Source: Clostridia bacterium
GTDB lineage: Bacteria; Bacillota; Clostridia; Christensenellales; CAG-917
Assembly (NCBI GenBank): GCA_900763875.1
Contig: CAAFLX010000001.1
Coordinates: 10,752 to 74,751 of the forward strand
Direction of reading: 5' to 3'
Length of the DNA stretch: 64,000 nt
Position 1 is the first letter of the stretch. Every line of letters begins with the position of its first letter. Positions 52,941 to 63,109 of this stretch are shown here, one piece after another. The notes beneath the pieces are model-generated. The model did no database searches. It saw nothing but the letters and a program-made list of their open reading frames with translations, and was not told where the DNA came from. The position numbers were made by a program, and so were the translations under genes.

Positions 52941-54398
52941 ATGAAAAGGCTACTTTTATGTTTGTTGTCACTTGTTTGTGCCGTATGCTTGTTTGCTGCA
53001 TGCAACAAAGATACACGATATAAGATAACGTTTCAGGACTTGTCCGCACTGCCCGATGGCATAGAGAGCGTCAAAAACGGACAGGGAACTATGGCGAGCG
53101 GAAGCGGAAACGTCGAAACCATCTATTTTACGTCTGGCAAAGGCGGCTCGTTTTTTGTGACGGTCACGTTCAAAGACGGCTACGATAAAGGCGACTTTAA
53201 GATTTTTGCCAACGGAAAGGAAGCGACGATCAAAAACGACAACGACAAAGTCGTTGATTACGAAGTTTATCCGACTTCCGACGTCCACATTACTTTTTCG
53301 GGCAAGCCCACATTAAAAAGTTTCAACGTGACGGCGACCTATGACGACAACGATCAGGAGCAAGTTTTAGACGAGTTTTCCTATGAATTGAAGTGCGTAT
53401 TCGGAACGGAAGAATCTGCGCCCGTAAAAGCAGCCACTCTTGCAGAATTGAAAAACAAAATCAATTCGGACATAAAAACCGTCAAATACGGCACGAAAAT
53501 CACTATAACGGCTACACATACGGGTGAAATTGCTTTTCCTGCCGACAATACGATTCATTGTCAATATTCGGGACATTACAAGTATGTTGAAAAAACAACA
53601 AAAATCGTCGGCGATAAACAGCTAAAAACTTGGGAGATTGCGGTTGTGTCCGACGTTGAAATACAACTGCGCCTCAGCTCTACCGCACAATCGTATTCGC
53701 GCAGCGTATACACTGACACAACGGTTTTGTATAGCGGAGTGTATGACGGCGATTTCAACGAGATAGCAACGCTCCAAGCACTTTACGATACGAATGGCAA
53801 AATTTACGCGCCGCTCCGCGATAACGCCGTTGTCCGTCATCTTGCCGAAAAATATAAAAAACTTACTATAAACGGCAAAACCGCGGACGGTAAATTTTTC
53901 TATAACCAAGCGGATAAACGTTGGTATGTTGAGCTCGACAAACCCTCAACCTACCCAAACGGAAGGGCGGACGGTTATGACGTTGATTTTGCCAAAGGCG
54001 TGGACGATTATATGAGCGGCGACTCCGCCTTGACGCGCGACAACATCGAGTTTAAGTCGCAGATTATGGACTGGGGCGAAAACCAATATCTCATGGTATG
54101 TGACGAATACGATGGTTATCGGCTCAAAAACAATAGATATTCGCTTGGTTTATGCTTTGCAAGCACCACGAACGATATCAAGGTGATTGTCAACGGCACA
54201 AAAGAAGTCGTTTTCCGCAACATACAAACGGTTGACGAAGAAACCAAAGAGTTTGCAACGATTTATCGTCGCGGCGGAAATAATGCCGAATATAACGGAA
54301 GTTACGGGGGTAACAACGGCAAAGACGAAACGCACAGAATTGCTTTCGATCCGTCAACAATCGGAGAAATAACGCGCGTTGAAATCGTGCTTGTTTAA
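52941..54398 (+). CDS. Hypothetical lipoprotein (485 aa)
   Basis: Signal peptide with the lipobox LFAAC. I recognise no domains. Confidence 0.75.
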   Translation: MKRLLLCLLSLVCAVCLFAACNKDTRYKITFQDLSALPDGIESVKNGQGTMASGSGNVETIYFTSGKGGSFFVTVTFKDGYDKGDFKIFANGKEATIKNDNDKVVDYEVYPTSDVHITFSGKPTLKSFNVTATYDDNDQEQVLDEFSYELKCVFGTEESAPVKAATLAELKNKINSDIKTVKYGTKITITATHTGEIAFPADNTIHCQYSGHYKYVEKTTKIVGDKQLKTWEIAVVSDVEIQLRLSSTAQSYSRSVYTDTTVLYSGVYDGDFNEIATLQALYDTNGKIYAPLRDNAVVRHLAEKYKKLTINGKTADGKFFYNQADKRWYVELDKPSTYPNGRADGYDVDFAKGVDDYMSGDSALTRDNIEFKSQIMDWGENQYLMVCDEYDGYRLKNNRYSLGLCFASTTNDIKVIVNGTKEVVFRNIQTVDEETKEFATIYRRGGNNAEYNGSYGGNNGKDETHRIAFDPSTIGEITRVEIVLV

Positions 54399-54431
54399 GA
54401 GTTGCGGAGAAAGTCGGGTGACATAATTCCC

Positions 54432-54460
54432 TTGACAAATCGGGGGTGCGGGGTTATAGT
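54432..54460 (+). promoter_or_regulatory. Promoter TTGACA-17 bp-TATAGT of the small ORF
   Basis: TTGACA at 54432-54437 and TATAGT at 54455-54460, followed by AGGAGG at 54474-54479. Confidence 0.6.
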
Positions 54461-54492
54461 TTTCTCATCAAACAGGAGGCGGAAGTGCGGAT

Positions 54493-54636
54493 ATGACAAT
54501 AAATACGGTTTTTGACAACAACAATGCGTTTTCTTCTGCTTTCAAGGCGGTTGCTTTTGCGAGCGGCTCTCAATTTGTCGAGGGCGGATATTGCTATTAT
54601 TACGGTGGTATGGACAAATCTCGCAAAGGATGCTGA
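54493..54636 (+). CDS. 47-codon Tyr/Phe-rich small ORF (candidate leader peptide, or a small secreted peptide)
   Basis: I translated it by hand because it falls below the ORF-track length cut-off: MTINTVFDNNNAFSSAFKAVAFASGSQFVEGGYCYYYGGMDKSRKGC. It has its own promoter, SD and terminator, and contains 5 Phe and 4 Tyr codons (YCYYY at 54589-54603). Confidence 0.55.
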   Translation: MTINTVFDNNNAFSSAFKAVAFASGSQFVEGGYCYYYGGMDKSRKGC

Positions 54637-54663
54637 CTGAGACGGTTTTGAGCTGTACAAAAT

Positions 54664-54694
54664 AAAGGCGATTCCTTTGCGGAGTCGCTTTTTT
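54664..54694 (+). terminator. Rho-independent terminator / attenuator hairpin
   Basis: GCGATTCC (54668-54675) pairs with GGAGTCGC (54681-54688). The stem is 8 bp including one G-U, the loop is TTTGC, and T6 follows (54689-54694). Confidence 0.7.
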
Positions 54695-54700
54695 GATAGC

Positions 54701-54842
54701 GTTGCGGTGCTTTGTAAACAACGATTGCACACTTGTCAATGGCGATTGCACGCTTTGCAAACAATGATAGCACACTTGACAACAGCTGTTGCACGCTTTG
54801 CAAACAACGCTTGTCAATGGCTGTTGCACGCTTGGAAAAAGG
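54701..54842 (+). repeat. Array of ~6.5 direct repeats with mostly 21-23-bp period (TTGCACRCTTTGYMAA-like, two alternating subtypes)
   Basis: TTGCAC-like heads occur at 54702, 54725, 54746, 54768, 54789 and 54824. The subtype GATTGCACGCTTTGCAAACAA alternates with GATTGCACACTTGTCAATGGC / GATAGCACACTTGACAACAGC. Confidence 0.7.
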
Positions 54843-54920
54843 CGGCATGGGCGGCGGAGATGTATATGCGAGGGGAATCCGCAATCGGGAGCAAGGGCGC
54901 GCAAACGGTTGAGAGTGCGT

Positions 54921-54960
54921 CGAAAACGTGCGAAAATCGGGCAAAATATGCGAAAAATCG
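54921..54960 (+). promoter_or_regulatory. Four A-tracts in exact 10-bp phase upstream of the pheA promoter region
   Basis: CGAAAACGTG CGAAAATCGG GCAAAATATG CGAAAAATCG. TATAAT hexamers follow at 54988-54993 and 55004-55009. Confidence 0.6.
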
Positions 54961-55027
54961 GACGTAATGTGAAAAAAGAGGTGGATTTATAATCATAATT
55001 GATTATAATGGATGCAAAGAGGTAGTT

Positions 55028-56128
55028 ATGCAAGACATCAAACAATCAAGGCAAATCATCAACGAAGTGGACGAGCAGATGGCGCGTCTGTTTGAGCAAC
55101 GCATGCAGGCGTGCGAGCAAATTGCCCTTTACAAAAAAGAGAACGGTTTGAGCGTGCGCGACAGCGAAAGGGAAGAGCAGGTTGTTGCAAGCAACAGCAA
55201 ATATATACAAGACGAGAATCTCGTGCCGTATTATAGGGATTTTGTCCGAGCCACGATGGACGTATCTTGTCGCTATCAAACCGCGCTCATGCGAAACATG
55301 CGCGTTGCGTATTGCGGGATCGAGGGCGCGTTTGCGTACATAGCCGCAAAAAAAATGTACCCCGATGCAGAATACGTTGCGTTTTCAAACTTTCAGGACG
55401 CATACGACGCGACGGCGAGCGGAGATTGCGATTGCTCGGTTTTGCCGCTTGAAAACAGCTATGCAGGCGAAGTCGGCGAGGTGATGGACTTGATTTTTTC
55501 GAAAGATTTGCACATCAATCAGGTGGTTGACGTTGCCATCGCGCACAATCTCATCGCTAAAAAAGGCGCGCAAATCGAGGATATTAAAACCGTAGTGAGT
55601 CACCCTCAGGCACTTGCCCAGTGCGAGGAGTATATAAAAGCGCACGGCTTTGAAACGAGGGCGTATTCAAACACCGCGCTTGCTGCAAAATTTGTTGCCG
55701 AGGCGCAAGATTCGAGCGTGGCGGCACTTGCCTCCGACGAAACGGCAAGAATGTTTGACCTTGACGTCCTTGACGCTCACGTCAACGACAATGCAAACAA
55801 TACAACGAGATTTGCGGCGTTTTCAAGGTCGGAAAATTTGTCTGCTTCCGTCGCAAAAAGAGCGGATGAAAACTTCATTTTGGCGTTCACCGTGCAAAAC
55901 GAATCGGGTGCGCTTGCAAGCGCGCTCAACATCATCGGCGCGCACAATTTCAATATGCGCACTCTCCGCTCAAGACCTATGAAAGACTTGCAGTGGAACT
56001 ACTATTTTTACATCGAGGCGGAGGGCAATATCCGCACCCAAAACGGCAGAGATATGATGCAGGAACTTTCCGCGCTTTGCGCCAAGCTCAAACTCGTGGG
56101 CAGTTATTTTGCAAACAACGTGAGGTAG
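55028..56128 (+). CDS. pheA: Bifunctional chorismate mutase / prephenate dehydratase (P-protein)
   Basis: N-terminal CM_2-like helix region, a PDT domain with the TRF motif (NNTTRFAAF), and a C-terminal ACT domain with SRP (LRSRPMK). Confidence 0.9.
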   Translation: MQDIKQSRQIINEVDEQMARLFEQRMQACEQIALYKKENGLSVRDSEREEQVVASNSKYIQDENLVPYYRDFVRATMDVSCRYQTALMRNMRVAYCGIEGAFAYIAAKKMYPDAEYVAFSNFQDAYDATASGDCDCSVLPLENSYAGEVGEVMDLIFSKDLHINQVVDVAIAHNLIAKKGAQIEDIKTVVSHPQALAQCEEYIKAHGFETRAYSNTALAAKFVAEAQDSSVAALASDETARMFDLDVLDAHVNDNANNTTRFAAFSRSENLSASVAKRADENFILAFTVQNESGALASALNIIGAHNFNMRTLRSRPMKDLQWNYYFYIEAEGNIRTQNGRDMMQELSALCAKLKLVGSYFANNVR

Positions 56129-56131
56129 AAG

Positions 56132-57136
56132 ATGATTTTGAAATCAAAAGCCGAAGGTCAATACTATGATATTGTGGTTGAAAGAGGCGTTCTGAACAAC
56201 ATAGGACAACTTGTCAATCTTCAAAGAAAAGTGCTTATCGTCACCGACGACGGCGTGCCGAAAGAGTATTCTCAAACGGTTGCCGCCGCAAGCAAAACGC
56301 CCGTGGTCGTCACCCTCAAACAGGGCGAGCAAAGCAAAAACTTTGACAATTTCAAGCTCATTCTTGCCACTATGCTCCAAAACGGTTTCACAAGAAAGGA
56401 TTGCGTTGTGGCAGTGGGCGGCGGCGTTGTGGGCGATATTGCGGGATTTTCGGCGGCGTGCTATATGCGAGGCGTGGAGTTTTTCAACGTCCCGACAACG
56501 CTGTTGTCACAACTCGACTCGTCCATAGGCGGAAAAACCGCGATTGATTTCGAGGGCGTGAAGAACGTTGTGGGAAGTTTTTTTGAGCCGTCAAAAGTGA
56601 TAATCGATTTGGACACGCTCAAAACGCTCGACGATAGACAACTGCACGCAGGGCTTGTCGAGGGTATAAAAATGGCACTCACCTCGAATAAGAGGTTGTT
56701 TGAAGCAATCGAAAATAGCGTGGATTTGCAAAAAGATTTGCAACTCATCGTGCAAAGCTCGCTGATAATAAAACGCGACATCGTTGAAAAAGACCCAAAA
56801 GAAAAAGACTTGCGTATGGTGCTGAACTTCGGTCACACGCTCGGTCACGCAATCGAGAGCGCAAAAAAAGGGAAGCTCCTGCACGGAGAGTGTGTGGGAA
56901 TCGGTATGCTTGCAACTTGCTCAAACAGCGTAAGACAAAGGCTTGTAAAAGTGCTTGAAAAATACAATTTGCCGACAAAGGCGGATTGCGACAGAGAGGA
57001 ACTTGTGAGGCTTATCGCCCACGACAAAAAGTCGCAAGGGGACAAAATCCGCACCGTCATAGTGGACGCGCCCGCCGCTTGGCGATTTGTGGATATGACG
57101 GCAGACGAAATCGTTGAAAGAGAGGACAGATTATGA
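56132..57136 (+). CDS. aroB: 3-dehydroquinate synthase
   Basis: GGGVVGDIAGF motif and HGECVGIG motif. 334 aa. Confidence 0.9.
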   Translation: MILKSKAEGQYYDIVVERGVLNNIGQLVNLQRKVLIVTDDGVPKEYSQTVAAASKTPVVVTLKQGEQSKNFDNFKLILATMLQNGFTRKDCVVAVGGGVVGDIAGFSAACYMRGVEFFNVPTTLLSQLDSSIGGKTAIDFEGVKNVVGSFFEPSKVIIDLDTLKTLDDRQLHAGLVEGIKMALTSNKRLFEAIENSVDLQKDLQLIVQSSLIIKRDIVEKDPKEKDLRMVLNFGHTLGHAIESAKKGKLLHGECVGIGMLATCSNSVRQRLVKVLEKYNLPTKADCDREELVRLIAHDKKSQGDKIRTVIVDAPAAWRFVDMTADEIVEREDRL

Positions 57137-58230
57137 AAAACACGTTTGGACAAAGCGTATCGCTCACGGTGTTCGGCGAGAGCCACGGAGCAGGCGTAGG
57201 CGTAGTGCTTGACGGGCTTTGCTCGGGCATTGACGTCAAAGACGAGGATATCAAACACGCTCTTGCAATGCGCGCGCCGTCTATGACAACGGACACTGCA
57301 AGACGAGAAAGGGACGCATATCAAATTCTATCGGGCGTGTTCAACGGCAAGACGACGGGCAGTCCTATTTGCATTTTCATACCCAACGAAAACACGGACA
57401 GCAAGGCTTATGAATACGGAGTCGCTCGCCCCTCGCATGCCGACTATGCCGCATTTTGCAAGTATGGCGGATTTGAAGATTATAGAGGCGGCGGACACTT
57501 TTCGGGCAGAGTGACGGCAGGCATTGTCGCTGTCGGCGCAATCTTGAAAGAGGCGTTAAAAAGAGTCGGAATCTCAATCGGCACACATATCCTTGAATGT
57601 GCCAACGTGCGCGATAACGAGTTTGACGATATACAAAACGAGGTTTTAACCCTCGATTGTACAAAATTCCCCGTTTTGAACGAGGAGAAAGGCAAAGAGA
57701 TGATTGCTTGCATAGAGGACGCAAAAGCGCACCTTGACAGCGTTGGAGGCATAACTCAAACCGCTATCGTGGGCGTGCCGTCGGGCGTTGGCGAACCTAT
57801 GTTCGACAGCGTTGAGGGGGTGCTTGCGCACGCTCTGTTTGCAATCGGCGGCGTAAAGGGCGTGGAGTTCGGAAAGGGGTTTGCGATGAGCAAGATGTTC
57901 GGCTCTTGTGCGAACGACGCTTTTCAAATGAACAACGGAAAAGTCACGACCAAAACCAACAACAACGGCGGCATAAACGGCGGCATTGCCAACGGTATGC
58001 CAATCGTGTTTAACCTTGCAATCAAGCCTACGCCGTCCATTGCAAAAAAACAAAACACCGTTGATTTTGTCAGCGGCAAGAACAGCCAAATCGAGATTGT
58101 TGGCAGACACGACCCTGCAATCGTAAGGCGAATTTGCCCGGTTGTGAACAGCGTAAGCGCGCTTGTGACGTGCGACTTGCTTGCTCAAAGATACGGAACG
58201 GACGTGTTCAAAAAGGGTATAAATCGATGA
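57133..58230 (+). CDS. aroC: Chorismate synthase
   Basis: The N-terminus FGQSVSLTVFGESHG is typical. 365 aa. Overlaps aroB by 4 bp. Confidence 0.95.
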   Translation: MKNTFGQSVSLTVFGESHGAGVGVVLDGLCSGIDVKDEDIKHALAMRAPSMTTDTARRERDAYQILSGVFNGKTTGSPICIFIPNENTDSKAYEYGVARPSHADYAAFCKYGGFEDYRGGGHFSGRVTAGIVAVGAILKEALKRVGISIGTHILECANVRDNEFDDIQNEVLTLDCTKFPVLNEEKGKEMIACIEDAKAHLDSVGGITQTAIVGVPSGVGEPMFDSVEGVLAHALFAIGGVKGVEFGKGFAMSKMFGSCANDAFQMNNGKVTTKTNNNGGINGGIANGMPIVFNLAIKPTPSIAKKQNTVDFVSGKNSQIEIVGRHDPAIVRRICPVVNSVSALVTCDLLAQRYGTDVFKKGINR

Positions 58231-59471
58231 AGTACGGGCTTGTCGGTGAAAAACTGGGGCATAGTTATTCTTGTGAAATCCACGCTCTAATCGGGGACTA
58301 TGACTATAAGCTAACCCCTCTTGCAAAAGACGAGGTGGCGGAGTTTTTTAAGCGCAGAAATTTTTGCGCCGTCAACGTCACGATACCATACAAGGAAACC
58401 GTGATACCCTTGCTCGACGTCGTATCGCAAGAGGCAAAAGCAATAGGCGCGGTGAATACCGTTGTCAATCGCGATGGAAAACTGTTTGGGTATAACACCG
58501 ATTTTTACGGAATCAAGGCTCTTTTGCAAAAGGCGGATATTGACGTTTGCGGCAAAAACGTGCTTATCCTCGGCACGGGCGGTACGGCAAAGACGGCTGC
58601 TGCAGTGATGACGGCTTTGGGTGCAAAGAGGATAGAAAAGGTTTCTCGCTCGAAAAAAGAGGGAGCAATCGACTATGACGAGGCAAAAAAACGGGTTGAT
58701 ACGCACATAATCTTCAACGCAACGCCCGTGGGGACGTTCCCGAACGACGAGGGTTTGCCCTTGGATTTGAGCGGCTTTGAACGGCTTGAAGGAGTGCTTG
58801 ACGCAATTTATCATCCGCTTGCCACAAATCTCGTTCTCGGCGCAAGAGAGAAAGGGTGCAAGGCGGAGGGCGGACTGTATATGTTGGTTGCGCAAGCCGT
58901 GTATGCGTCAAGGTTGTTTTTTGGAAAAGAAATAGGCGACGTCGGCAAAGACGAGATTGACGATATATACGACAAAATCCTCGCACAAAAACAAAACGTC
59001 GTGCTTGTCGGTATGCCTTCGTCGGGCAAATCGACAATCGGCAAGAGAGTTGCAAAGATGCTCGGTCGCAAGTTTGTTGACACCGACGACGAGATTATAA
59101 AGAAAATCAAAATGCCTATTTCCGAGTTTTTTGCAAAGTTCGGCGAGAGTGAATTTAGAAAAATCGAGAGCGAGGTCATTGGCGAGATTGCAAAAGAGAG
59201 CGGAATCGTGATTGCAACGGGCGGTGGCGCAGTGCTTGCAAAACAGAACGTTTTCGCGCTCAAACGCAACGGTAAACTTGTGTTTTTGGACAGAAAACCG
59301 ACAAATCTCGTTGCGACCGAAACAAGACCGCTGTCCTCGAATAGGCAAGATTTGCAAAGGCTGTATGAGCAACGATACCCGATTTATTCGGCGTGCGCCG
59401 ACCTAAAAATCGAAAACGACGGCACTATCGACGATGTTGTGCGCGAAGTCGTAAAGGAGTTTGAAAAATGA
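58227..59471 (+). CDS. aroE: Fused shikimate dehydrogenase (N-terminal) / shikimate kinase (C-terminal)
   Basis: Start moved to ATG 58227, which overlaps the aroC stop as ATGA. The N-terminal roughly 250 aa are AroE-like (NVTIPYK, GTGGTAK). The C-terminal roughly 160 aa carry the P-loop GMPSSGKST and are AroK-like. Confidence 0.85.
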
Positions 59472-59902
59472 AAATATTGGTGCTTAACGGGCCGAATATC
59501 AATATGCTGGGCATACGCGAGCCGCAAATTTATGGCAATCGCACTTACAACGACCTCGTGCAAAGCATACAGAAATATTGCGACGACAAGGGCGTTGAAG
59601 TGGCGTTTTTTCAGTCCAATCACGAAGGCGCGCTCATAGACAAGATTCAAGACGCCTACTTTTCAAAGGTGGACGGAATCGTGATAAACCCTGCCGGATA
59701 TACGCATACAAGCGTGGCTATCGCCGACGCGTTGAAGGGCGTGAATATCCCGTTTGTCGAGGTGCATATCTCAAACGTTGACGAGAGAGAGGAGTTCAGA
59801 AAAATCAGCTTTGTGAGAAACTATGCGCTAAAAACGATTTCGGGCAGAGGATTCGAGGGGTATATCGAGGCGATAAAAGTTCTTGAAAACTTGAAAAAAT
59901 AA
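59468..59902 (+). CDS. aroQ: Type II 3-dehydroquinate dehydratase
   Basis: [23 protein letters not shown] is the typical type II N-terminus. 144 aa. Confidence 0.95.
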
Positions 59903-60017
59903 AGTAAACCACGTTTGCAACAACAATAATCAACGGAAAATAACAATAACCTCAAAACAACGAGAATTTGAAAATCGCAGGGTAGTTCCGATGGCGATTT
60001 TGTAAAACGAAAAGAAT

Positions 60018-61223
60018 ATGAGAGTGACTTTTGAAAAATCCAAAGCGGTTGGAAGCGTTGCCGCTCCGCCGTCAAAAAGCGTTGCGCACAGATTGTTGAT
60101 TGCGTGCGCGCTCTCGCGTGCAAAAAGCGAGGTTCGGGGCATATCGGACAGTGAGGATATGCTCGCAACGCTGGATTGCATAAAGGCACTTGGAATAAAC
60201 GTCAGAAAGGACGGCGACGTCGTATACTTCGACGGCGGAGAAAACCGCACGGGAAATACGCCCGTTTTCGATTGCAGAGAGAGCGGAAGCACGTTGAGGT
60301 TTTTCTTGCCCGTTGCAAGCGTGTTTTGCGACGAGTGCGTGTTTGTAGGCTCAAAAAGATTGCTTGAAAGAGGCGTTGACGTGTATGAAAAAACACTTGG
60401 CGAACACGGCGTAAAAGTGCGTTGCGACGGCGGAAAAATCACCGTGTCGGGGTGGCTTGAAAGCGGCGTTTACACCCTCCCCGGCGATGTGAGCAGTCAG
60501 TACGTTTCGGGACTTGCGTTTGCGCTTGCGCTCCTAAAGGGCAACAGCGAAATAAGGGTTTTAGAACCCGTCGAGAGCAGGGCGTATATTGATATGACGA
60601 TTGAAGTTTTGAAAAAGACAGGCGTTGAAATCGTCGAAAAAGAAAGGAACGTGTTTTTTGTCAAGGGCGAGCAAAAGTACCGAGGAGGAACATACGAGGT
60701 CGAGGGCGATTGGTCAAACGGAGCAATGCTCCTTGCGCTCAAAGAAGTCGGCGGCAACGTCGAGGTGACGGGACTTGACGAAAACAGCGTGCAAGGGGAC
60801 AAGGTTTGCAAGCAAATTTTCAAATGTCTTGATGAGGAAAACGCCGTTGTCGATCTTGCAAATTGTCCCGATTTGGCACCGATTGCGTTTGTTGTGGCGG
60901 CTTTGAAAAGAGGCGCGACGTTTGTCGGAACAAGGCGGCTCAAAATCAAGGAGAGCGACCGCGCTATGGCTATGGCGCAAGAGCTTGCAAAGTTTGGGAT
61001 TTGCGTTGATGTGCGCGAAAACGAGGTTGTTGTGCATAAAAACGATATAAAAACACCGTGTTGTGATATTTGCGCACACAATGACCATAGAATCGTGATG
61101 GCGTGCAGCGTGCTGTTGAGCCTCGTTGGAGGCACGATTGACGGCGCACAGGCGGTGAGAAAAAGTTTCCCGAATTTCTTTGAAAAAATGGGAGAGCTTG
61201 GAGTGAGATATGAAGTTGAATAA
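60018..61223 (+). CDS. aroA: 3-phosphoshikimate 1-carboxyvinyltransferase (EPSP synthase)
   Basis: PPSKSVAHR motif and LPGDVSSQYVSGL motif. 401 aa. Confidence 0.9.
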   Translation: MRVTFEKSKAVGSVAAPPSKSVAHRLLIACALSRAKSEVRGISDSEDMLATLDCIKALGINVRKDGDVVYFDGGENRTGNTPVFDCRESGSTLRFFLPVASVFCDECVFVGSKRLLERGVDVYEKTLGEHGVKVRCDGGKITVSGWLESGVYTLPGDVSSQYVSGLAFALALLKGNSEIRVLEPVESRAYIDMTIEVLKKTGVEIVEKERNVFFVKGEQKYRGGTYEVEGDWSNGAMLLALKEVGGNVEVTGLDENSVQGDKVCKQIFKCLDEENAVVDLANCPDLAPIAFVVAALKRGATFVGTRRLKIKESDRAMAMAQELAKFGICVDVRENEVVVHKNDIKTPCCDICAHNDHRIVMACSVLLSLVGGTIDGAQAVRKSFPNFFEKMGELGVRYEVE

Positions 61224-62079
61224 GGATATGAAGATTCTTATTGTCGGTGTTGGATTGATTGGCGGAAGCTATGCGGAGGCTCTTTCAAAAAAAGGCTATG
61301 AGGTGGGCGCGATAGACAGCAGAAAAGAGGCTGTCGCGTTTGCCATTGAAAAAGGGTATATAGCAAGCGGAATGAGCGAGGTCGAGGGCGAGTACGTTGC
61401 AAAATTCGACCTTGTTGTGTTTGCGCTTTATCCGCACGCTTTTGTAGAGTGGGTGGAAAAAAATCAAGCGTTTTTCAAGAGTGGCGCAATTATAACCGAC
61501 GTGACGGGCGTGAAAGGGAGCGTGGTTTTCAAAGTGCAGGATATGCTCCGCTCGGACGTGGAGTTTATAAGCGCGCACCCTATGGCAGGCAGAGAGTGCT
61601 CGGGCGTGGAGAACGCAAAAGCGGAGATTTTTGACGGCGCAAATTATATCGTCGTCCCGACGGATAAAAATACGCAGGGCGCAATCGAGTTGTGCAAGGA
61701 TTTGGGCAAAACGCTGGGATTCGGGCGCGTTTGCGAGCTGTCCGTAAAGCAGCACGACGAGATGGTGGGATTTTTGTCGCACCTCACGCATTGCATTGCC
61801 GTGTCGCTGATGGTGTGCAAACAAAGCGAGCATCTTGCCGATTATACGGGCGATTCGTTTAGAGATTTGACGCGTATCGCAAAGATAAACGACGAGATGT
61901 GGAGCGAACTGTTTTTGGCAAATAAGGACGAAATCGTCGAGCAAATGAACCTTTTTGAGGAGCATTTTGAAAAACTTAAAGAATGTATTCAAAATGACGA
62001 TAGGGACGGAATAAGGCAAATGATGCGCCTCTCGAGCGCGCGCCGTAAGGCTTTCGACAAACGATACGAGGAGAAGTAG
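61210..62079 (+). CDS. tyrA: Prephenate dehydrogenase
   Basis: Rossmann motif ILIVGVGLIGGS and the HPMAG motif. 289 aa. ATG 61228 is an alternative start. Confidence 0.9.
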   Translation: MKLNKDMKILIVGVGLIGGSYAEALSKKGYEVGAIDSRKEAVAFAIEKGYIASGMSEVEGEYVAKFDLVVFALYPHAFVEWVEKNQAFFKSGAIITDVTGVKGSVVFKVQDMLRSDVEFISAHPMAGRECSGVENAKAEIFDGANYIVVPTDKNTQGAIELCKDLGKTLGFGRVCELSVKQHDEMVGFLSHLTHCIAVSLMVCKQSEHLADYTGDSFRDLTRIAKINDEMWSELFLANKDEIVEQMNLFEEHFEKLKECIQNDDRDGIRQMMRLSSARRKAFDKRYEEK

Positions 62080-62080
62080 T

Positions 62081-63109
62081 ATGAACGTGGAATTCAAAAG
62101 AAAAATGCCAACTTTGCAGGAAATCAAGGAAATGTACCCAATCGACGACAAGCTCGCCGCTTTGAAAAAGGATAGAGATGACGCACTCAAAAATATTTTC
62201 GAGGGCAAGGACGACAGATTTTTGCTTGTCATAGGCCCTTGCTCTGCCGATAGAGAGGACGCCGTGCTCGACTATATTTCAAGGCTTAGGGACGTGCAAA
62301 ACAAGGTTGAGGACAAAATCTTTATCGTGCCGCGTATTTATACCAACAAACCGCGCACAACCGGCGACGGATACAAGGGAATGCTCCACCAGCCCGATCC
62401 GCACGCAGGCGAAAATATGCTCAAAGGGCTTATCTCCATACGAAAACTGCACATTAAGGCTCTGCGCGAAACGGGATTTTCTTGCGCCGACGAGATGCTC
62501 TATCCCGAAAATCACCTCTACCTCTCGGACGTGCTTTCATACGTCGCGGTCGGGGCTAGGTCGGTTGAAAATCAGTTCCACCGCCTCACCGCAAGCGGTT
62601 TGGATATCCCTGTCGGCATGAAAAACCCCACCAGCGGCGATTTGTCCGTGATGATGAACTCGATACGCGCCGCTCAACATCCCCATACGTTTGTGTACAG
62701 CGGGTGGGAGGTCAACTCAAAGGGCAATCCGCTCGCTCACGCTATCCTGCGCGGCTCGGTGGACAAAAACGGGCAGACTATCCCAAACTATCACTATGAG
62801 GATTTGCGCAGGCTCGCCGATTTGTACGCACAAAGCGGTCTTGCAAATCCCGCCGTCATCGTCGATACCAATCACTCTAACTCCGCAAAAAAATTCTTCG
62901 AGCAACCGCGTATCGCCAAGGAAGTGCTGCACAGTATGCGCGAGGCGGCAGATATCAAAAAAATCGTCAAGGGCTTGATGATTGAATCCTACATCGAGGA
63001 GGGCGCGCAATCTCCCGACGACGGCGTGTACGGCAAATCTATCACCGACCCCTGCCTCGGCTGGCAAGACACGCAAAGGCTCATCTTCGACCTTGCAGAG
63101 CAACTGTAA
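62081..63109 (+). CDS. aroF: 3-deoxy-7-phosphoheptulonate (DAHP) synthase, class I
   Basis: LLVIGPCS and KPRTT motifs. 342 aa. The paralogue name (aroF/G/H) cannot be decided from sequence. Confidence 0.85.
   Translation: MNVEFKRKMPTLQEIKEMYPIDDKLAALKKDRDDALKNIFEGKDDRFLLVIGPCSADREDAVLDYISRLRDVQNKVEDKIFIVPRIYTNKPRTTGDGYKGMLHQPDPHAGENMLKGLISIRKLHIKALRETGFSCADEMLYPENHLYLSDVLSYVAVGARSVENQFHRLTASGLDIPVGMKNPTSGDLSVMMNSIRAAQHPHTFVYSGWEVNSKGNPLAHAILRGSVDKNGQTIPNYHYEDLRRLADLYAQSGLANPAVIVDTNHSNSAKKFFEQPRIAKEVLHSMREAADIKKIVKGLMIESYIEEGAQSPDDGVYGKSITDPCLGWQDTQRLIFDLAEQL

Follow-up and report, generated by a model that had tools for sequence, protein, structure and literature searches.

A stretch of 64,000 nt from Clostridia bacterium (GenBank assembly GCA_900763875.1, contig CAAFLX010000001.1, positions 10,752 to 74,751 of the forward strand), hereafter referred to as the window, contains an operon for aromatic amino acid biosynthesis, pheA-aroB-aroC-aroE/aroK-aroQ-aroA-tyrA-DAHP synthase (55028..63109, + strand, Pfam assignments). 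Upstream of pheA lies a small leader unit, all parts of which are on the same strand, with its own promoter, a short open reading frame (ORF) containing Phe and Tyr codons and an intrinsic terminator. Judged from its sequence and from folding models, this element is most probably a ribosome-mediated leader-peptide attenuator that senses charged tRNA-Tyr and tRNA-Phe and governs read-through into the pheA-aro-tyrA-aroF operon. The leader codons fit the products of the operon, both pheA and tyrA being present in it.

The leader promoter (11/12 consensus match) is made up of TTGACA (54432-54437), a 17-nt spacer and TATAGT (54455-54460), and is one of two sites of this grade between 52500 and 56500. 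The Shine-Dalgarno (SD) sequence, read from the sequence as AGGAGG (54474-54479), has its GGAGG invariant in close relatives, and a second purine motif, GGAAG, is found 7 nt from the leader ATG. The leader ORF (54493..54636) extends from ATG 54493 to TGA 54634-54636 and encodes a product of 47 amino acids, MTINTVFDNNNAFSSAFKAVAFASGSQFVEGGYCYYYGGMDKSRKGC. Five Phe codons are present, including Phe22 (54556-54558) and Phe28 (54574), and the regulatory codon run TAT TGC TAT TAT TAC (Y C Y Y Y, 54589..54603) supplies four Tyr codons. Phe22 falls within segment 1, the anti-antiterminator strand GCUUUUGCGAG (54553..54563), which pairs with 54620-54630 in the minimum free energy (MFE) fold of the free transcript. 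Phe28, the single Phe (Q-F-V) of its loop, falls within a hairpin inside the ORF (54566..54585) that was found in the MFE fold and aligns with the covarying hairpin P1 of relatives. Segment 2, the 5' strand of the antiterminator with the core CGCAAAGGA, occupies 54620..54631, 3 nt before the stop codon. The intrinsic terminator (54668..54694), identified by folding and by a terminator finder, comprises the stem 54668-54675/54681-54688, the loop 54676-54680 and T6 at 54689-54694; it reads GCGATTCC-TTTGC-GGAGTCGC in DNA (54668-54688, -11.6 kcal/mol) followed by T6, and GCGAUUCC-UUUGC-GGAGUCGC followed by U6 in RNA. A further helix of the MFE fold, P0 (54475..54543), joins the SD region (54475-54485) to codons 14-17 (54533-54543).

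An initial annotation, made from the sequence alone, had described the promoter, the SD sequence, the 47-codon ORF with YCYYY, the terminator with T6 and a 9-bp complement between the end of the ORF and the terminator, and all of these were recovered where it had placed them. The core of segment 2 (54622-54630) is indeed the perfect complement of 54673-54681 (TCCTTTGCG; RNA UCCUUUGCG). The 9-bp pairing is not significant by itself because about one such complement is expected by chance in ~660 nt (an estimate), and the complement listing gives two. The duplex of segment 2 with the terminator in the window outdoes 99% of shuffles, and the whole 64 kb holds one SD-preceded small ORF with an amino-acid run and a terminator after it, besides an overlapping alternative-frame ORF. 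Being unique in the window, including a strong duplex and being conserved in relatives, the conjunction of the leader parts is significant beyond chance.

The conservation of the unit was followed by a PheA scan using one genome per species, yielding 70 loci of uncultured Clostridia, among the labels of which are Firmicutes bacterium CAG:475, Acutalibacteraceae, and Oscillospiraceae. A small ORF rich in Phe and Tyr (F/Y) with an SD sequence and ATG was found upstream of pheA in 40 of the 70 loci, spanning 40-69 codons in most relatives and carrying 4-12 F/Y codons at the position of the window's run. In the close group (PheA 81-87% identical), the peptide takes the form ..SAFxAVSFAxASRFFEGGYYYYY..; the promoter hexamers, GGAGG, ATG, GCAAAGGA(C)GC, and the entire terminator are invariant or nearly so in a 9-sequence alignment, and segment 1 is kept as CTTTTGC or CCTTTGC. 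In the distant group (PheA 55-68% identical), the peptide is ..SFNAVRFYSYCxFYYYGW.. or ..AVRFFAYCFFYYFYFYFYG... Hairpin P1 of the relatives, GCAGUACGA-UUUUUU-UCGUACUGC, is a perfect hairpin that holds Phe codons in its loop and has the F/Y run directly 3' of it; its stem is perfect, GC-rich and 9-11 bp long in most of them, and its loop carries F-F or F-Y, the main run coming after P1. The apparent peptide motif AVRF(F/Y)(S/A)YC reflects an RNA constraint, this stretch encoding the P1 hairpin. Long 1:2 helices analogous to the pairing of segments 1 and 2 accompany P1 in the relatives. A scan of the loci L041-L070 for F/Y leaders with terminators revealed no new type and one further family member, L051, in which a GNAT acetyltransferase gene is located between leader and pheA (L051:1044-1839).

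The exact P1 pattern was also used to scan metagenomes, giving 75 contigs, mostly from the human gut. PheA was the first operon protein found downstream of P1 in 72 of the 75, beginning from residue 1 at 163-249 nt past P1 in 67 of them; in three others the PheA start is ~910 nt downstream with a DUF554 membrane-protein gene in between, and in the remaining two the PheA match is partial. Lack of conservation of the ORF and its pairing segments in relatives had been named in the initial annotation as a refuting outcome, and it was not observed: the promoter, SD sequence, ATG, F/Y codon run, antiterminator strand and terminator recur ahead of pheA in the 40 species genomes and the 72 contigs, with covariation. 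No match to the leader was found in the plasmid database searched. In some lineages, as in the contigs L082, L122, and L145, the 236-amino-acid DUF554 membrane protein (Pfam E=4e-68) comes first after the F/Y leader, then pheA, and this shared position hints, by way of co-regulation with pheA, at a DUF554 role tied to aromatic amino-acid supply or transport. Leader variants, natural or due to assembly, were also seen, with the F/Y run deleted (L071), interrupted by TAG (L126), or frameshifted (L128); if real, they represent natural attenuator mutants. Closer to the window, a search for AroF homologues (matches of at least 79% identity) produced a same-species contig, L146 (AroF 98% identical), and contig L147, both of which have the same operon gene order as the window. 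The promoter, SD sequence, segment 2 and terminator are intact in L146.

An alignment of 40 sequences lends further support to the proposed structure. Taken together, P1 and the terminator are paired in 90.7% of cells as opposed to 39-55% in slid controls, with 72 double-change cells vs 22.7 in shuffles (0/500), while the terminator helix alone is paired in 93.5% of cells with double changes in five pairs. The 8-bp helix of the antiterminator, in the register of the window, reaches 84% of paired cells; sliding the partner brings the whole 9-pair structure to 40-62%. Segment 2 is kept in relatives as GCAAAGGA(C)G. Some lineages shift the register of the antiterminator along with the terminator, as exemplified by L013, in which GAAGCCGC lies opposite GCGGCUUC. 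Taken locus by locus, the best duplex of the post-run region with the terminator 5' arm and loop is worth -10 to -24 kcal/mol, similar to the terminator itself, and reaches p<=0.05 in 24 of the 40 loci. Segment 2 starts at a median of 14 nt before the stop codon and at most 2 nt past it; segment 2 is therefore either traversed or occupied by any ribosome arriving at the stop codon.

The MFE fold of the free RNA combines the 1:2 and 3:4 pairings. An upstream copy of the complement, 54554-54561 (CTTTTGCG; RNA CUUUUGCG), had been suggested to pair with segment 2 in untranslated RNA, and this pairing is present in the MFE fold. Folds of the nascent transcript with its end at 54681 or 54684 show segment 2 paired to 54670-54681 in all ribosome states but one, that in which the stop codon is occupied, in line with the mutually exclusive switch (the 2:3 pairing against the terminator) that had been envisaged at the outset. 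A ribosome stalled at Phe22 or Phe28 masks segment 1. Truncated transcripts of all 40 loci were folded as well, and here the freed terminator 5' arm finds weak partners in every state, rendering the measure uninformative. The P0 duplex of the window amounts to -20.3 kcal/mol (p=0.025 vs shuffles); comparable duplexes are seen in most relatives (median -16.4 kcal/mol, p<=0.05 in 16/39), and in the distant group a helix of this type links the SD region to codons ~10-17, for example GGAUACGGAA with UUCCGUGUCC. On the strength of these folds, P0 could confine translation of the leader to the first ribosome, or to one round.

Conservation in relatives, covariation, and the nascent-transcript folds thus favour the ribosome-mediated Tyr/Phe attenuator put forward by the initial annotation, and a sequence of events can be proposed. 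Transcription would begin from the promoter at 54432-54460, and a ribosome would load at the leader ORF (54493). With Phe and Tyr plentiful, it would reach TGA 54634 and cover segment 2 (54620-54631), whereupon the terminator (54668-54688 plus U6) would fold and transcription stop. A stall on the Tyr codons (54589-54603) or on Phe codon 54556 or 54574 would leave segment 2 free to pair with the emerging 5' arm and loop of the terminator, so that RNA polymerase would continue towards pheA. In an untranslated leader, segment 1 (54553-54563) would sequester segment 2 and the terminator would form. The sequence parts, conservation, covariation, codon phase, geometry and in silico folds are observed; from them we infer the response to tRNA charging, the kinetic order of folding, the pausing or synchronising role of P1 and the re-initiation role of P0.

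P1 itself was scored as an intrinsic terminator by the terminator finder in L022. A tentative and rather unlikely extension of the attenuator model is that P1 and the U-rich F/Y tract form a translation-reversible pause or termination checkpoint, which would detain or abort RNA polymerase up to the moment when an arriving ribosome melts P1, so that the two keep in step. If this were true, the U-rich tract would provide both the sensing codons and the pause or termination signal, and P0 and P1 would together make a two-checkpoint attenuator, an arrangement undescribed for the classical systems. It would also provide the synchrony on which leader-peptide attenuation depends, in a Firmicute whose transcription and translation are otherwise uncoupled.

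Several observations weigh against the attenuator or complicate it. The covariation of the antiterminator is modest, with 13 double-change cells vs 6.5 (2/500) in the fixed-column alignment. The distance of 13 nt from AGGAGG to ATG is rather long. When the ribosome occupies the Tyr run, segment 1 is uncovered and could compete for segment 2, and what follows from such a stall would therefore be decided by kinetics or by a second ribosome queued behind the first. In constrained folds, the full-length RNA at equilibrium adopts the terminator under every ribosome mask. Equilibrium ribosome-masked folds were accordingly dropped as a model of the switch, the terminator having always won, and folds of the nascent transcript were used instead; since the full-length RNA at equilibrium always adopts the terminator, the switch must be kinetic. 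The terminator of the E. coli trp leader is likewise the stabler structure. Lastly, two features of the region between terminator and pheA count against the attenuator in the window, namely a terminator-pheA gap of 340 nt and a palindromic block that is near-invariant in the close group and kept in the leaderless species L003, L005, L007, and L010.

In ~25 species, the end of the terminator lies 29-61 nt from the pheA ATG, and pheA must there be transcribed through the terminator because such a distance leaves no room for a promoter. The gap widens to 140-175 nt in the close group. The initial annotation had placed the unit 330 bp upstream of pheA; the long gap is a species-specific insertion, relatives having 29-175 nt. 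The insertion is a repeat spacer outside the attenuator proper (54700..54933), consisting of repeats of ~21/43 nt in two families, D1 and D2, with units like TTGCACGCTTTGCAAACAA and TTGCACACTTGTCAATGG and with embedded palindromes such as CAACAGCTGTTG. No copy of the 235-nt insert was found elsewhere in the window or in relatives. The spacer of L146 is shorter by 78 nt, and its copy number therefore differs between strains. Either an array of repeated binding sites for a protein or plain tandem expansion could account for the spacer.

The palindrome, TTATAATCA-TAAT-TGATTATAA (54986..55009), is a perfect 9-bp inverted repeat and a candidate regulatory site or promoter. It is situated directly upstream of the pheA ribosome-binding site, ~10 nt from the SD sequence, and the conserved block with its flanks covers ~54950-55027. 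In one relative group, an A-to-G change keeps the RNA pair as G-U and breaks the DNA palindrome. From its sequence, the block is a possible independent promoter or operator, or else an RNA hairpin.

With a gap of 340 nt and a palindrome that persists in leaderless species, pheA may therefore own a promoter, the attenuator then controlling part of its transcription only. In a stronger version of this explanation, the leader would be decoupled here and produce a short terminated transcript, with most pheA transcription depending on another promoter or operator, located in the block 54940-55010. The strain-variable repeat array of the spacer speaks for it, as does the block, TTTATAATCATAATTGATTATAATG, since the leaderless species must have something there that drives or controls pheA. 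No good match to a sigma-70-type promoter was found in 54695-55027, though, the best being just 9/12 (54909-54937), and on reading the sequence the TATAAT copies in the palindrome have no usable -35 or TGn. The leader parts, moreover, are intact in both the window and L146, which argues for continued selection. Complete decoupling is therefore considered unlikely, and the attenuator and a second control of pheA are not mutually exclusive.

The leaderless sisters L003, L005, L007, and L010 (PheA 84-86% identical) have lost the F/Y leader wholly. Their 5' regions are unrelated and extend up to ~550 nt (L010:3450-3940), with sequence common to L003, L007, and L010 and a T run at the end; no Rfam match was obtained for the leaderless loci even at E<=1. 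To go by the sequence, this region may be a different, undescribed regulatory element that replaces the leader.

A second alternative is that an RNA-binding factor, be it a protein, a tRNA or a metabolite, decides between terminator and antiterminator by acting on the conserved hairpins, with the ORF being incidental. P0, P1, and the 1:2 helix show more conservation than a minimal leader-peptide attenuator would require, and the leader fold has a z-score of -3.07 (MFE), both of which would suit such a factor. The codons argue otherwise. An ORF with SD sequence and ATG over the run exists in the F/Y frame at 31 of 40 loci and in either of the other two frames at none (0/40 each), and all 40 loci have, in the F/Y frame only, an ORF with SD sequence and ATG that stays open through the run to segment 2. 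In 50 unique runs, C was counted 115 times at codon position 3, five times at position 1 and eight times at position 2, a pattern of UAY/UUY wobble variation indicative of constraint at the level of codons. This count is partly circular because the run was defined in frame, while the frame-wise ORF test is independent of that definition. The F/Y tract is evidently read as codons. The stop codon, too, keeps a conserved place with respect to segment 2, and neither a T-box nor any other Rfam family was matched in the window or in eight loci of the distant group. A factor acting without the ribosome is hence quite improbable, more so than the decoupling of the leader from pheA.

The initial annotation had also entertained a small secreted or modified peptide, that is, an independent small protein or precursor of a ribosomally synthesised and post-translationally modified peptide (RiPP) with a GG motif and a Cys-bracketed core, unrelated to pheA; complete as a transcription unit, called as a 47-amino-acid gene in L146 and having GG before YCYYYGG, the ORF fits this description in part, but it has no Pfam match, no maturation or export genes are nearby (as had been remarked from the start), the unit is always linked to pheA and often ~30 nt away from it, and the C-terminal Cys and GG are missing in relatives, so that a RiPP is highly improbable. 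Across relatives, the peptide shows free variation except at the F/Y codons and in the RNA-constrained segments. Between L146 and the window, four substitutions in the leader ORF cause four amino-acid changes (T I N T to T R N A, A F S to A L S, and S Q F to S R F), one of which loses a Phe and another of which strengthens P1. On these two grounds, the interpretation as a RiPP or secreted peptide was discarded, a peptide unconserved beyond the F/Y codons and RNA segments arguing against a bioactive product; the leader peptide is not selected as a peptide.

The first gene of the operon under the proposed attenuator, pheA, encodes the domains CM_2, PDT, and ACT. Further downstream is an aroE-aroK fusion gene for shikimate dehydrogenase-shikimate kinase (58224-59471, + strand), the neighbours of which overlap by 4 nt; such overlaps suggest translational coupling along the operon. 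Directly upstream of the leader is a gene for a predicted lipoprotein of 485 amino acids (52941-54398, + strand; signal peptide then Cys) with no Pfam match, which precedes the leader in L146 too and not in L147. Searches of Rfam returned no T-box, Phe_leader or other leader family in the window at gathering score, or in 54380-55060 at E<=10, bearing out the absence of a T-box noted earlier; over the window, the eight distant-group loci and the leaderless loci, only a tRNA and a chance snoRNA match were obtained.

Leader-peptide attenuation is often seen as a proteobacterial and actinobacterial device. The contrast drawn in the initial annotation between Proteobacteria and Firmicutes was overstated because the F/Y leader attenuators uORF-12, uORF-13, and uORFC-13-1 have already been predicted in Firmicutes (PMC6429828, PMC8632094). 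The aromatic amino acid attenuators uORF-12 and uORF-13 were described by Stav et al. 2019 (PMC6429828) from Clostridium novyi and occur in Firmicutes and metagenomes. Both resemble the present family in having a short F/Y ORF and a terminator stem before shikimate and Tyr/Phe genes; the comparison was made by description only, neither motif being in Rfam 15. In uORF-13, a short ORF has its F-Y-F codons in the loop of hairpin P1 and is followed by the terminator, the whole lying mostly before aroF and tyrA (PMC6429828). Aromatic codons in the P1 loop are shared with the present family, in which, unlike in uORF-13, the main F/Y run follows P1; pheA, furthermore, is not among the genes listed for uORF-13, whereas the present family is found only before pheA or before DUF554 or GNAT genes followed by pheA.

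uORFC-13-1 was reported before aroF in Acholeplasma and environmental sequences (Brewer et al. 2021, PMC8632094). It has in common with the window a promoter, a ribosome-binding site, an upstream ORF with Phe codons in a U run, an adjacent intrinsic terminator and a shikimate gene, and differs by its narrow distribution, its aroF context and its having at least one Phe codon instead of an F/Y run. No leader resembling uORFC-13-1 was found beside the matched gene in Acholeplasmatales, Erysipelotrichaceae or the other distant loci (L058, L060, and L067-L070).

The E. coli pheL-pheA leader (Rfam Phe_leader) and trpL share with the window a leader ORF, cognate codons, segments 1-4 and the pairings 1:2, 2:3, and 3:4 (PMC3082878; PMC1183508; PMC11802643), and pheL-pheA controls, as would the present leader, a gene for chorismate mutase/prephenate dehydratase. 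There is, however, no similarity in sequence or by covariance model, the present ORF is longer (47 codons), its Tyr and Phe codons are mixed, it contains an extra hairpin, its host belongs to Clostridia, and downstream of it lies the whole common pathway plus tyrA. The leader aroR before aroF of Corynebacterium glutamicum (Neshat et al. 2014, as presented in PMC11802643), with Phe-Tyr-Phe and experimental support, is likewise a mixed Phe/Tyr leader peptide attenuating a shikimate-pathway operon. As far as that account goes, aroR differs in being actinobacterial, in its peptide, RNA structure and first gene, and in its reported response to Phe and not Tyr, the window's run being dominated by Tyr. 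His leader-peptide attenuators in Firmicutes were predicted by comparative genomics (Naville & Gautheret 2010, PMC2965389; Ashniev et al. 2022, PMC9413887); they, too, represent regular leader-peptide attenuation replacing T-boxes, albeit for another amino acid and operon and in other lineages.

The present leaders are well supported as a new member, with many loci, of a type already predicted, the Phe/Tyr leader-peptide attenuator of Firmicutes. More than 110 loci, none with an Rfam family, provide a regulatory annotation for the aromatic operon of widespread uncultured Clostridia of the human gut, and in some lineages the leader also connects aromatic amino-acid supply with a membrane protein of the DUF554 type. 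With a covarying hairpin inside the ORF, natural variants of the F/Y run and sister species without the leader at hand for study, the family is a convenient system for ribosome-sensing attenuation where the coupling of transcription and translation is thought to be loose. It adds to the evidence that Firmicutes employ leader-peptide attenuation for Phe and Tyr biosynthesis instead of T-boxes or TRAP.

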